DNA of 8,389 nucleotides from UHGV virus genome UHGV-1378212. One strand, written 5' to 3'. Source of the DNA: a virus. Below, piece by piece: positions 383-8,389 of this stretch (its first letter is position 1; each line of letters starts with the position of its first letter). A model generated the notes under the pieces. It saw only the letters and a list, made by a program, of their open reading frames with translations, did not search any database and was not told the origin of the DNA. A program made the translations under genes and the position numbers.

Positions 383-565
383 ATGGCAAAGCGCACGACT
401 TATAACGTGACGGAAGAAAGAAAAATGAAACTAGAACGACTGGCTATAAATGCCAGTGTAAAACTAGGAAAAACAATTACATGGACAGAGATTTTAGGTT
501 ATCTGATTGATAACTACTCTAAAGATGCAGCAGAAGATCTCATGTCTGCCAAACAAAAGGATTAA
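383..565 (+). CDS. Small DNA-binding protein, ribbon-helix-helix (CopG/Arc-like) candidate; possible repressor
   Basis: 60-aa ORF MAKRTTYNVTEERKMKLERLAINASVKLGKTITWTEILGYLIDNY...; N-terminal basic beta-strand (KRTTYNV) followed by two predicted helices with G-x-T at helix-2 start fits RHH pattern; no clear SD (possible leaderless or weak RBS); first gene of a terminated plus-strand operon. Confidence 0.45.
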   Translation: MAKRTTYNVTEERKMKLERLAINASVKLGKTITWTEILGYLIDNYSKDAAEDLMSAKQKD

Positions 566-610: not shown

Positions 611-680
611 TCTAGTTTGTGCAAAACTTAAACAAAAAGTAAGTCATCGAGATAAACAAAACGAGTCAAAGTATATACTG

Positions 681-821
681 ATGAATACGCCAAAAAAAAG
701 TGAACAAAAACAGAATGATAAGCAACAAGGCTTTGCCCAAGATGGTTTGGACACATCTAAAGCAAAAAGGCTTTTAGAAAAAGCTCAACAATCCACTACT
801 AAACCAACACAAGGAAAGTAA
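681..821 (+). CDS. Hypothetical small hydrophilic protein (46 aa), Lys/Gln-rich; C-terminal motif shared with the next ORF
   Basis: ATG at 681 is the first plausible start after the RHH stop within the 507-821 ORF; stop TAA 819-821 sits 1 nt before the next ATG (823); C-terminal GLDTSKAKRLLEKAQQS resembles GLNTSKASSLLAKIQSQS of the next ORF; no SD seen. Confidence 0.35.
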   Translation: MNTPKKSEQKQNDKQQGFAQDGLDTSKAKRLLEKAQQSTTKPTQGK

Positions 822-822
822 T

Positions 823-1098
823 ATGTTATCTTTTCAGGTTTTCCTTTTTAAAAAAGCATTAGAGGAAGAATTAGATATAATCAAATGGCATCCAACAAAT
901 GAACAATTGGAGGAGATGTTCAATGAGATAAAAAAACTCAGTGGCAATGAAAGCATCACTGAAGTTGAAAATATCGTTCATCGAATTTACAAAAAACCGA
1001 TTACAAGAATGATTTGTAATGGATTGAATACATCGAAAGCAAGTTCGCTATTGGCAAAAATTCAATCCCAGTCAAATAACACTCAACAAAAAAGATAG
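823..1098 (+). CDS. Hypothetical protein (91 aa)
   Basis: ORF MLSFQVFLFKKALEEELDIIKWHPTNEQLEEMFNEIKK...; SD-like AGGAAAG 6 nt upstream of ATG; stop TAG 1096-1098 overlaps the next start (GTG 1098); C-terminal motif paralogous to previous ORF. Confidence 0.55.
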   Translation: MLSFQVFLFKKALEEELDIIKWHPTNEQLEEMFNEIKKLSGNESITEVENIVHRIYKKPITRMICNGLNTSKASSLLAKIQSQSNNTQQKR

Positions 1099-1802
1099 TG
1101 AAATCAGATATGGATGTTCACGGTATCATTGATAATCAAAAAAAAGAAATTGAGCGTTTATATGAAAAATATACTGAGTCATTAGAGTGTTACCTATCTG
1201 GTAAATGTGATTTTGATACCGTGAATTCATGTGGAGACAGTTTTTTCGGCTATTTAGAACACTGCGCTGCACATAACAGAACAGTAGATGAATTAAATAA
1301 TACTCAATGGAATCAATGGCTTGCAGAAACATGCATTGATGTTCTTCACCTTATCTTAGCTCATTACAAAAAATATAGAGAGGTAATGAATGATAATAGT
1401 ATTAAACCAAGCTCCACTGCTTTTGCTTCAATGCAAAGGATAGTAAAAGCCCATGACAAACGTTCTGCAAAAGAAATAAGGAATCTTTTCGTTAATGAAG
1501 ATATGCCAGTATATGGATTTGACAATAAAGGAAAAGAAAAATTGACAAAAGCACACGAGAGAATAGCGGCATTTAGCTTTGGCATTTTACTTGTTATTCT
1601 TTTTATAATAATCGCAATATTTATACCTAATCCAACGAACTTTCAATACACTTTCTTTCGAATAATTCTTTCAGCAGCAGTTGCTGGGGTAGTCTCATTT
1701 ATACCCGGGTTTATAGAAGTCAAAATATCAAACTGGGTAAGAGCAGGTGGAGCATTAGCTGTATTTGTGATTGTCTATTACGTGGCTCCCGCAGCATTAT
1801 GA
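1098..1802 (+). CDS. Hypothetical membrane protein: Cys-rich soluble N-terminal domain (~165 aa) plus three predicted C-terminal transmembrane helices; candidate effector/exclusion protein
   Basis: 234-aa ORF (GTG 1098, alternative ATG 1110); hydrophobic stretches AAFSFGILLVILFIIIAIFIP, FFRIILSAAVAGVVSFIPGFI, AGGALAVFVIVYYVAPAAL at the C-terminus; five Cys in the N-terminal domain; followed by an intrinsic terminator. Confidence 0.6.
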   Translation: MKSDMDVHGIIDNQKKEIERLYEKYTESLECYLSGKCDFDTVNSCGDSFFGYLEHCAAHNRTVDELNNTQWNQWLAETCIDVLHLILAHYKKYREVMNDNSIKPSSTAFASMQRIVKAHDKRSAKEIRNLFVNEDMPVYGFDNKGKEKLTKAHERIAAFSFGILLVILFIIIAIFIPNPTNFQYTFFRIILSAAVAGVVSFIPGFIEVKISNWVRAGGALAVFVIVYYVAPAAL

Positions 1803-7447: not shown

Positions 7448-7762
7448 TTAATGCCAGCTACTGGCGTGCGAAATACGGTTGTAATCGAAAATAAAACCTT
7501 TCTCATAAATCCATAAGGGGATTTCCACTGGCTTGGCTTCCAGCGTTCTTATTAGCGGAACAACGTTATTAGAGTCTGGTGAATCACAATAGAAATTAAT
7601 ATCGATACCGAACGAAAGCAATTCTCTTCTATGGCGATAAAAAGTGTTATGAGGTAACATTTCTTTCATGTTAGCCCCTTGTTTCCAAAGTAAATAAGTT
7701 GACTGTATTTTTCTTGGCAGTTTCGTTATTTTTTCATCACTTAAAATAGCATTCTGATTCAT
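7448..7762 (-). CDS. X: Gene X (pX), in-frame internal start within gene II
   Basis: Internal ATG at 7760-7762 begins MNQNAILSDEKITKLPRK..., comparable to M13 pX start MNIYDDSAVLDAIQSK and in the equivalent position in the C-terminal third of pII. Confidence 0.55.
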   Translation of the reverse strand: MNQNAILSDEKITKLPRKIQSTYLLWKQGANMKEMLPHNTFYRHRRELLSFGIDINFYCDSPDSNNVVPLIRTLEAKPVEIPLWIYEKGFIFDYNRISHASSWH

Positions 7763-8342
7763 TTCTATTCTCCCTACATATTCAGAGAATAATTGACGTG
7801 GTGTTTTCATATTCCAGTTAGCGCCAAGCGTTAAATTTAAATCAATAAGCTCAGTTGTTCTTAATGTTAATTCAATACGTAATTTATCTTTCGTCCAGTC
7901 CAGTAACCCGGCTCGTACAAAATCTTCGGCTATCTGGTGCCCTTTTTTACCCGAAACGTGTTCATCATATTTTGAATAAAATTTCAGACTCCATCGACGG
8001 GAGTTTTTACCTAAATAAACTGTACCGCCTTTCCCACATGCGCGACCATGGCGTGTTTTAGCTTTAAATTCGGCGGCATAAAGCCATGATCTGACATTTT
8101 CTAGCGTAGATAATGAATACATGTAATTAATGTCAACACGTGAAATTTTATACTGACCTGCTATAACAGCTTTATAAGACGCTAAATCATGAGGAATATT
8201 CAATAAGGATAAAATCCTGGCATAGACCGTCAACATGAGCCCTTGTATATCATCCGACCCAACAACAGAATGCCCCTGCAAAAACTTGGACGGATTACCA
8301 TCAATGTACAAATGTGTCGCTTTACCTTCGCCATTAGATCCT
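7448..8342 (-). CDS. II: Gene II replication initiation protein, C-terminal segment (continues at 56-213 via circular junction)
   Basis: 287-aa track ORF plus upstream in-frame codons to 8342; C-terminus ...NNVVPLIRTLEAKPVEIPLWIYEKGFIFDYNRIS matches recalled M13 pII C-terminus (NNVVPLVRFINVDFSSQRPDWY); the track start at 8311 is a TTG, not the real start. Confidence 0.9.
8288..8342. repeat. Terminal direct repeat, copy 2 (identical to 1-55)
   Basis: Exact 55-nt match to window start. Confidence 0.9.
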
Positions 8343-8389
8343 GTCTCTTATACACATCTCCGAGCCCACGAGACGTAGAGGAATCTCGT
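8341..8389. other. Sequencing-library adapter read-through (Tn5 mosaic end plus Nextera adapter with an index-like 8-mer), not biological sequence
   Basis: CTGTCTCTTATACACATCT (Tn5 mosaic end) followed by CCGAGCCCACGAGAC, 8 nt GTAGAGGA, then ATCTCGT (start of ATCTCGTATGCCGTCTTCTGCTTG); begins exactly where the terminal repeat stops matching. Confidence 0.9.

Follow-up and report, generated by a model that had tools for sequence, protein, structure and literature searches.

Type II antitoxins such as Phd, CcdA, ParD, and RelB have an N-terminal domain or disordered region and a C-terminal helix that folds onto the partner. Their genes lie upstream of the partner's gene, with coupled translation, and are found on mobile elements. 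In Bacillus, the SpoIISABC system includes a toxin of about 250 amino acids, with three transmembrane (TM) helices and a cytosolic domain, whose gene is adjacent to the genes for two paralogous small antitoxins (about 45-56 amino acids; PMC4926146). These antitoxins, SpoIISB and SpoIISC, originated in a tandem duplication and have a short conserved motif in common; each of them binds the cytosolic domain of SpoIISA (PMC4926146). Also, TM proteins in the defense systems of phage hotspots are generally viewed as abortive-infection effectors (PMC9122126). Here, we describe a cassette of three genes (orf46, orf91, and orf230) in UHGV-1378212, a filamentous-phage genome; "the window" means the whole 8,389-nucleotide (nt) stretch of DNA that we analyzed. 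By analogy, SpoIISABC is the closest functional precedent for this cassette, which encodes two small proteins that end in a shared motif and, downstream of them, a membrane protein:

681..821, plus strand: orf46 (short type, "S"), a basic and hydrophilic protein of 46 amino acids, from the list of open reading frames (ORFs), its translation, and the PGAP annotation (WP_001335097.1).
729..800, plus strand: the conserved block of orf46 (codons 17-40), GFAQDGLDTSKAKRLLEKAQQSTT, whose core, GLDTSKAKRLLEKAQQS, is at nt 744-794.
823..1098, plus strand: orf91 (long type, "L"), 91 amino acids, with an alpha/beta domain and then the motif and a long C-terminal helix.
1021..1071, plus strand: the motif core of orf91, GLNTSKASSLLAKIQSQ, in which N69-T70-S71 cap the C-terminal helix.
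1110..1802, plus strand: orf230 ("M"), with an all-helical N-domain and a three-TM module; the putative partner of the motif proteins.

The motif that orf46 and orf91 share is the module that defines an uncharacterized family of small proteins, which occur on mobile elements together with one type of membrane protein. The observation is genuine, and it extends further than could be seen from the window alone. No known family matches orf46, orf91, or orf230, and a literature search on the RefSeq accessions returned no papers.

The first-pass annotation of the window had reported a C-terminal motif in these two ORFs. We found both the ORFs and the motif where it had placed them, with nt 744-794 encoding GLDTSKAKRLLEKAQQS in orf46 and nt 1021-1068 encoding GLNTSKASSLLAKIQS in orf91, although the peptides that it quoted slightly overrun its coordinates. 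The consensus of the pair is G-L-[DN]-T-S-K-A-x-x-L-L-x-K-x-Q, and the motif's glycine is 25 residues from the stop codon in both proteins. The similarity is significant: the best local alignment of the two proteins (BLOSUM62) is exactly the motif segment, with a score of 49, and none of 5,000 shuffled controls reached this score (mean 23.5, standard deviation 4.3, maximum 45). The significance also holds if the shuffling is limited to the two 26-residue tails. A comparison of profiles gives a similar picture, as the orf46-type profile (10 sequences) and the orf91-type profile (11 sequences) match over 26 C-terminal columns only (hhalign; probability 92.5%, E = 4.8e-7). Because the homology is confined to the C-terminal module, orf46 is not a full-length copy of orf91 that diverged. 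The short and long types are both old and separately conserved. The motif had also been thought to lie immediately before the start codon of the next gene, but between each core and its stop codon there are eight further codons, and the Shine-Dalgarno sequence of orf91 (AAGGAAAG) is in the tail codons of orf46, not in the motif.

Is the peptide itself under selection? The comparison of orf46 to orf91 does not settle this. Nucleotide identity, which had been estimated by eye at about two-thirds, is 32/51 (63%) in the core and 48/81 (59%) across the last 27 codons. Of the amino acids, 10/16 are identical in the core and 11/26 in the tails, and the first, second, and third codon positions of the tails are identical at 17/27, 17/27, and 14/27 sites. 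So, contrary to what had been claimed, conservation in this pair is not clearly higher for the peptide than for the DNA. The convincing evidence for selection on the coding sequence comes instead from orthologs. Orthologous cassettes are present in inoviruses of Dickeya zeae and Pectobacterium versatile and in several sequencing-run and metagenome assemblies, with different backbones, and we estimated dN and dS across five orthologs. In the 24 codons of the conserved block of orf46 (GFAQDGLDTSKAKRLLEKAQQSTT), dN is 0-0.018 at dS of 0.13-1.6, and each pair of orthologs has 0-1 replacements versus 2-13 synonymous differences. In the 15 codons ahead of this block, dN is 0.17-0.30. For the motif of orf91, dN/dS is 0.03-0.11. 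Nearly all of the differences between orthologs in the motif are synonymous, so it is the peptide and not the RNA that is under selection, and the coding-level selection that the first-pass annotation had proposed is borne out.

We also considered whether orf46 could be a non-coding remnant. It is a real gene of 46 codons: it is called by PGAP, its start codon and its length are conserved, and its block is constrained. In the database, orf46 forms six clusters, and every one of them is 46 amino acids long. The same ATG and the same length are found in cassettes from Dickeya, Pectobacterium, and metagenomes whose upstream DNA is unrelated, and several of these orthologs have a good Shine-Dalgarno sequence. 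(A longer form of 98-104 amino acids, extended upstream as implied by phrog_6875, would cross the boundary of the cassette, and the DNA upstream is unrelated in the orthologs, so we rejected it.) The protein consists of a variable leader that is rich in lysine, glutamine, and asparagine (residues 1-16) and is probably disordered, and then the conserved motif helix. Its isoelectric point is 9.9 and its grand average of hydropathy is -1.76.

The longer protein, orf91, has a small alpha/beta domain (residues 1-62, including W22-x-P-T-x-x-Q) before the motif. In a model from AlphaFold2 (AF2), the mean confidence (pLDDT) is 82.9 and the secondary structure is H3-17, E19-21, H26-37, H45-56, E61-62, and H70-89. 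After the domain, a coil with G67-L68 leads to a long helix that begins at T70, with N69 and S71 as its cap. The pLDDT of this motif helix is 68-78, versus 84-92 for the core of the domain. Among 1.84 billion representative sequences, the orf91 family comprises about 30 clusters at 50% identity, all of 79-117 amino acids, and all of them end in G-h-[DN]-x-[ST]-x(3-4)-LL-x-h (where h is hydrophobic), in a "TSK/TST" or an "NSD" flavor. In an alignment of 32 family members, the conservation of G67 is 90% or higher, and L77 never varies. We found no match to orf91 in Pfam, NCBIfam, PADLOC, or PDB, and its AF2 model has no significant structural neighbor, as fold searches returned only generic helical matches. 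Several members of the family (P0001, P0005, and P0006) are named "S-(hydroxymethyl)glutathione dehydrogenase" in NCBI or UniRef. This is a propagated mis-annotation, as orf91 has just 91 amino acids and no such domain.

The motif's G-h-x-x-x-x-A-x-x-h-h resembles the GhGxxxAxxhh of helix-hairpin-helix (HhH) and SAP DNA-binding motifs. However, no HHH or SAP profile matches at E <= 1. The predicted geometry is also wrong for HhH, because in the AF2 model of orf91 a strand (E61-62) and a coil, rather than a helix, precede G67, and in orf46 there is only the disordered leader ahead of the motif.

The motif recurs beyond the window, in other phage, plasmid, and metagenome cassettes. About 50 related loci have motif-bearing small genes (loci are labeled L001, etc.). 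In generalized form (G-h-[DN]-x-S-x(3-4)-LL), the motif ends every small protein that is encoded upstream of a full-length M. There are one to four of these small genes, and their products have three kinds of N-terminal part: a disordered leader (S), an alpha/beta domain of the orf91 type (L), or a divergent form of the L domain (X). The arrangements are short-long-short-long, short-long-long, X-long, X-short, and a single gene. In the largest, five-gene form (short, long, short, long, and membrane protein), each of the four small proteins has the motif at its end; this form is found in a Cedecea genome, an inovirus from IMG/VR, the NCBI assembly GCA_977070325.1, and metagenome contigs. The pair in the window looks like the first short gene and the second long gene of the form with four small genes. 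The first-pass annotation had proposed a tandem duplication followed by divergence, which holds only in part: duplication or shuffling of the module did occur in the family, but not as a recent local event in the window's phage. The motif is retained even where a cassette has just one small gene (L030/L032, L035, L015, L049, L072, and L100, which is from a P2-like phage), so it does not need a second motif-bearing partner.

The presence of the motif tracks with a specific part of the membrane protein. We searched the stop-to-stop ORFs on both strands of all of the loci with a hidden Markov model (HMM) of the motif (21 columns; E <= 1). All 102 matches are on the same strand as M and directly upstream of a full-length M. 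In contrast, there are no matches in the roughly 45 loci whose M relative has the TM module only. Because there are no motif proteins beside these TM-module-only relatives, the part of M with which the motif proteins track is its helical N-domain. The small genes and M are packed as in an operon, with stop and start codons that overlap or are adjacent.

Relatives of M occur in Proteus, Cronobacter, Aeromonas, Microbulbifer, a P2-like phage, plasmids, and many metagenomes. The cassette occupies the attL-adjacent slot of several inovirus backbones. In a P2-like phage, a long-type gene and M are at the Z/fun position, between the FI sheath gene and the tail-fiber genes; the Z/fun locus of P2 is a recognized hotspot for defense and accessory genes (PMC13586616). 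The cassette is also on a 109-kb Cronobacter plasmid with gp32-, RecA-, and DNA-polymerase-III-alpha-like genes (this set of replication genes is phage-like), on other plasmids, and in islands flanked by integrases or insertion sequences, one of which is beside AbiJ/Abi_C and a toxin-deaminase gene.

The N-domain of orf230 is formed by residues 1-~140 (nt 1110-~1530), and the three-TM module by residues ~147-225. The AF2 model has a pLDDT of 81.7 overall, and above 90 for residues 11-140, and its TM helices are H147-171, H177-197, and H207-225. The N-domain is on the side of the first TM helix that is rich in lysine and arginine, so in this model it is presumably cytoplasmic. The database has 70 relatives of orf230, with about 35 clusters of the full-length type. 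There is no relative by sequence in PDB, no significant structural neighbor of the AF2 model, and no match in Pfam or NCBIfam. In PADLOC-DB v2, the sole match for orf230 is to Csx27 (E = 0.0056, 15 bits), and there are no matches for orf46 or orf91.

Proteins from Vibrio, Aeromonas, Verrucomicrobiota, and Acidobacteria (P0055-P0083) have the highly conserved three-TM module (window ~1546-1799; ...FGV.F...IPNPT.FQY..FR...PGFIEVK...LRAGGALAVF...) at 45-60% identity. In them it is fused, in an N-terminal, central, or C-terminal position, to unrelated soluble domains (ankyrin, DUF4019, or beta-rich domains of unknown kind). It has no Pfam model, and it looks like an uncharacterized and widely reused membrane unit. 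Separately, a loop in the N-domain, between the second and third long helices (residues ~55-62, window ~1272-1295; alignment A6), contains a motif-like cap. The class of this cap tracks the motif of the small proteins: M has ...FVGNSDLLGAH... in NSD cassettes and ...AHN[RN][ST][VLI][DE]E... in TSK cassettes. The motif HMM does not pick up the cap, which may be a coincidence or an internal pseudo-ligand.

The motif also varies in concert within cassettes. We compared the motifs of the first and last motif proteins of each cassette to those of other cassettes. In the NSD class (n=12), there were 11.75 identities of 16 within cassettes, versus 10.67 across cassettes (p = 0.0003). In the TSK class (n=10), motifs were also more alike within cassettes (p = 0.023). 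For example, the two motifs of L042 are GADNSDFNTLLALALA and GADNSDYNTLLTLALA, and a ...TLIALAI... variant is in both proteins of L034. Recent gene conversion is not the cause of this similarity, because identical residues mostly use different codons: the same codon is used for 1/12 identical motif residues in L047, for 5/14 in L042, and for 6/10 in the window.

As for its physical character, the module starts with a Gly-hydrophobic turn, which is followed by an Asp/Asn-x-Ser helix cap and then by an amphipathic helix along which runs a conserved hydrophobic stripe (A/L...LL..h). Apart from this stripe, the helix is polar, with a basic character in the TSK class and an acidic one in the NSD class. 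It is unlikely to anchor the proteins in the membrane, as it is very polar, and acidic in the NSD class. The polarity of the helix favors a protein interface over a lipid anchor.

Based on co-occurrence, co-variation, and architecture, we propose that the motif is a docking helix for the cytoplasmic domain of M, in a module that is similar to a toxin-antitoxin system or that acts in defense or exclusion. We favor this reading over the others and give it a probability of about 50%. Each small protein would dock with its motif helix on one common surface of the N-domain of M. The small proteins would then be interchangeable regulators of a membrane effector, either as antitoxins that neutralize it or as adaptors that sense a trigger, and the cassette would act like a toxin-antitoxin or abortive-infection/exclusion module that benefits the carrier phage. 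The minimal, helix-only form would be orf46; orf91 would be the form with an extra domain; and the two would be partly redundant.

Several observations weigh against this proposal. First, PADLOC, Pfam, and NCBIfam lend no support to an assignment to defense or toxin-antitoxin systems, and fold searches give generic helical matches only. Second, the co-variation is a modest effect, of about one residue in 16, and some of it could be due to lineage-specific amino-acid composition, and the p-value from pooling the classes is dominated by a single class split that parallels the phylogeny of M. The charge complementarity between the motif and the N-domain of M has the right sign but is weak, in a small and non-independent sample. 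Third, orf46 has no clear Shine-Dalgarno sequence in the window. Fourth, there are natural frameshift alleles of orf91 (loci L101-L104), and orf46 and orf230 are intact in all of them. The A7 run at 930-936 has lost 1 nt in one NCBI assembly and in independent Logan assemblies, and 1 nt has been lost at ~1045, inside the motif, from both tandem prophage copies of GCA_041030985.1. (The A7 run could be slippage-prone, and hence phase-variable, or a site of recurrent sequencing error.) Because a frameshifted orf91 coexists with an intact orf46 and orf230, orf91 is not an indispensable antitoxin, and it is dispensable at least if orf46 is present. The frameshifts are consistent with redundancy between orf91 and orf46, and they would equally fit an M that is not toxic, or not constitutively so.

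More speculatively, and with rather less confidence than for docking itself, the cassettes could form a previously unrecognized plug-and-socket family of membrane-effector systems in phages and plasmids. The motif would be the plug and the helical N-domain of M would be the socket. One to four adaptors, ranging from a bare helix to a helix with a sensor domain, would hold the three-TM effector off or trigger it. Adaptors would be swapped, duplicated, and deleted as cassettes diversify, with plug and socket co-evolving. If true, this would be a new anti-phage, exclusion, or addiction system in the cargo slots of filamentous and P2-like phages.

The main rival to docking on M, although we consider it unlikely, is that the small proteins pair or bundle with each other through the helix, and that M is only a co-expressed neighbor or a downstream target. 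Helix-helix pairing also predicts the co-variation of motifs within cassettes, and an amphipathic helix with a moderate pLDDT as a monomer is compatible with the need for a partner. However, cassettes with a single small gene keep the motif, which argues against hetero-pairing as the general role (homo-oligomers would still fit), and pure self-association does not explain why the motif is restricted to M proteins with a specific N-domain.

Short C-terminal helical peptides are often degrons or ligands of host proteins. So, the motif might bind a factor of the host or of a competing phage (such as a protease adaptor, a membrane or division protein, or a protein from an incoming phage), or it might be a degradation tag. 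The disordered leader of orf46 would suit a labile protein, and the loss of orf91 without the loss of orf230 would also fit. But the class of the motif (TSK to NSD) and its fine sequence change with the clade of M and with the cassette, while a conserved host target would keep the motif constant within Enterobacterales. Nor does a host factor explain the strict co-occurrence with the N-domain of M. We therefore view this explanation as improbable, and as a weaker candidate than self-association.

A nucleic-acid element at the 3' ends of both genes (such as an RNA structure, a signal for translational coupling, or a site of recombination) has very little chance of being the explanation. The first two had been raised in the first-pass annotation, and both motifs are indeed near gene junctions in tightly packed genes. 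Also, the orf91 segment (1021-1071) folds into a hairpin with a 9-bp stem (z = -3.98; 0/200 shuffles were as stable). The corresponding segment of orf46, however, folds differently and weakly (z = -1.96 for the core and -0.25 with flanks). The stem of orf91 is fully paired (9/9) in the window only, as 6/9 positions pair in an ortholog with an identical peptide and 4-6/9 in the others. Furthermore, a scan of Rfam gave no match, synonymous sites in the motif vary freely, and the distance from the motif to the stop codon ranges from 20 to 45 codons across the family. An RNA element is thus excluded at the level of the family.

The hairpin in orf91 is a perfect 9-bp inverted repeat of the codons for G-L-N (GGATTGAAT) and for I-Q-S (ATTCAATCC). 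Orthologs do not conserve it, so it is probably a side effect of codons that happen to be compatible as reverse complements. It could still affect local mRNA stability or the translation of orf230 in the window's phage.

The least credible explanation, which we consider excluded, is that the tails (rich in K, Q, S, and T) are of low complexity and alike by chance or that orf46 is a decaying remnant of a duplicated orf91: the tails are compositionally biased, and orf46 is a very short gene without a good ribosome-binding site in the window, but composition-preserving shuffles never attain the score of the alignment, the two profiles match (E of 4.8e-7), orthologs of orf46 retain its start codon, length, and invariant 24-residue block at dS of up to 1.6, and short motif-only proteins recur in distant cassettes.

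We now turn to the phage that carries the cassette. The window is one circular genome of a filamentous phage, with a unit length of 8,287 bp. Positions 8288-8342 are a copy of the first 55 nt (the terminal overlap of a circular contig), and positions 8343-8389 are a Nextera transposase adapter (CTGTCTCTTATACACATCT...); the adapter, like the whole of the last 102 nt, is an assembly artifact, and it leads to spurious megablast matches to many unrelated phage records. The minus strand encodes the standard inovirus proteins (gII, gV, major coat, g3p-like, DUF5455, Zot/pI, and secretin/pIV). The gII gene (7448-8311, minus strand) is cut by the origin of the window; the PGAP version has 350 amino acids. 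A prophage that is 100% identical to the window is in 22 of 5,426 complete E. coli genomes, beside hipBA (the dif region). Given this location and a dif-like attP at 1871-1900, the window is a filamentous phage of E. coli of the CUS-1/YpfPhi type. XerC/D-dependent integration at dif is established for this lineage, and its attL-adjacent ORFs differ from phage to phage and have no known function (PMC4266046). The relevant features are:

383..565, plus strand: orf60, a small backbone protein upstream of the cassette, at an rstR-like position and outside the cassette.
613..1802 (approximate boundaries), plus strand: the cargo cassette orf46-orf91-orf230, AT-rich and swappable, from the comparison of tandem prophages and the GC profile.
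1832-1869, no strand assigned: a terminator-like GC-rich hairpin (GAGGCCGCTGCG...CGCAGCGGCCTTTT), at the right bound of the cassette.
1871-1900, no strand assigned: the dif-like attP (reverse complement TGGTGCGCATAATGTACGACTCGTTATGTT), directly after the hairpin, at the right bound of the cassette.

E. coli Combat2C1 has two variants of the prophage in tandem, which are identical up to ~612 and again from ~1803. In between, they hold different and unrelated three-gene cassettes. Because the tandem prophages differ only in this segment, orf46-orf91-orf230 is swappable cargo. The GC content of the cassette is 31-35%, versus 42-50% for the backbone. These results agree with what characterizes cargo ("moron") genes in dif-integrating inoviruses: a position between the regulator and attP, an atypical composition, and replacement by unrelated genes. 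Within the cassette, the genes are tightly packed, with TAAtATG at the junction of orf46 and orf91 and 11 nt between orf91 and orf230. The backbone gene orf60 is identical in both of the Combat2C1 variants despite their different cargo. It matches phrog_2503 (whose function is not known), and its product is probably a ribbon-helix-helix regulator, although this assignment is our own reading of the sequence pattern and not the output of a tool. The sole promoter-like site upstream of the cassette is at 322-349. On the other side, the XerC arm of attP (GGTGCGCATAA) is perfect and the central region of attP is extended, and the junction of the prophage with the hipA side of the chromosome falls inside the 1832-1900 site. 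(A simple scan for terminators missed the hairpin at 1832-1869 because its loop is longer than 8 nt.)

The alternative cargo, in the first Combat2C1 copy (L001 981-2186), encodes proteins of 140, 91, and 159 amino acids. The first has multiple TM helices, the second is an "ECs_2282 family putative zinc-binding protein," and the third has an N-terminal TM helix. In two contigs from gut metagenomes (L030/L032), the gene for the 140-amino-acid TM protein is followed by a long-type gene and an M of a different clade, so cassettes stack and swap in the slot. A non-coding element, AAAGTTCGGGTGTCACAGAACCCCGAACCGCTTCGCGG (with the hairpin GTTCGGG/CCCGAAC), is conserved ahead of many cassettes in different backbones. 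It is about 60-110 nt upstream of the short gene in L002/L003/L004 and is also present in L006, L010, L023/24, L026/27, and L030/32. The window lacks this element and has another hairpin, GTGCAGTattaccaacACTGCAC, at 586-608, just ahead of the boundary of the cargo. The conserved element could mark a boundary of the cassette, be a site of recombination, or act as a regulatory hairpin.

All three proteins were previously hypothetical, and the shared tail helix links them into one cassette family that spans Enterobacterales, Aeromonas, Microbulbifer, and many metagenomes. Prophages of the CUS-1/YpfPhi type are clinically relevant, as they are found in extraintestinal pathogenic E. coli and are related to a phage of Yersinia pestis. 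Accessory slots like this one are the usual home of defense, exclusion, and addiction functions. If the docking model is true, then the cassette would be a compact system for the control of a membrane effector by multiple adaptors, and it would provide a short co-evolving pair of peptide and domain to study. If the model fails, then a peptide of 16-24 residues that is invariant across saturated synonymous divergence still needs to be explained.

How does the cassette compare to known systems? Like SpoIISABC, it has a three-TM protein with a cytosolic domain beside small proteins that share a motif (for the cassette, according to AF2 and alignments). We found no homology to SpoIIS for orf46, orf91, or orf230, in either a Pfam scan (E <= 1) or searches of PDB sequences. 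The TM helices of SpoIISA are N-terminal and the small genes are downstream, while in the cassette, the TM helices are C-terminal and the small genes are upstream. SpoIIS is part of the chromosomal core in Bacilli, while the cassette is phage cargo in Proteobacteria. Also, unlike those of SpoIIS, the cassette's small proteins have different N-terminal parts and number one to four.

The cassette would also resemble the type II antitoxins in its architecture, gene order, and location. There is no homology, however, and no DNA-binding fold was recognized in orf91; furthermore, the cassette's partner is a membrane protein, and several motif-bearing paralogs can be in one operon. As for location, the variable ORFs of CUS-1/YpfPhi and the ctxAB genes of CTXphi share with the cassette the phage lineage, the integration at dif, and the position between the regulator and the att site. 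Reports on CUS-1/YpfPhi describe this slot with unrelated ORFs, and the cassette, its motif, and its wider distribution are not described there (PMC4266046). The resemblance to defense cargo (such as the Z/fun and old/tin loci of P2) is by location and architecture only, and no component of the cassette fits a PADLOC model. Overall, no part of the cassette belongs to a described family; in kind, it resembles known modules of small proteins and a membrane effector.

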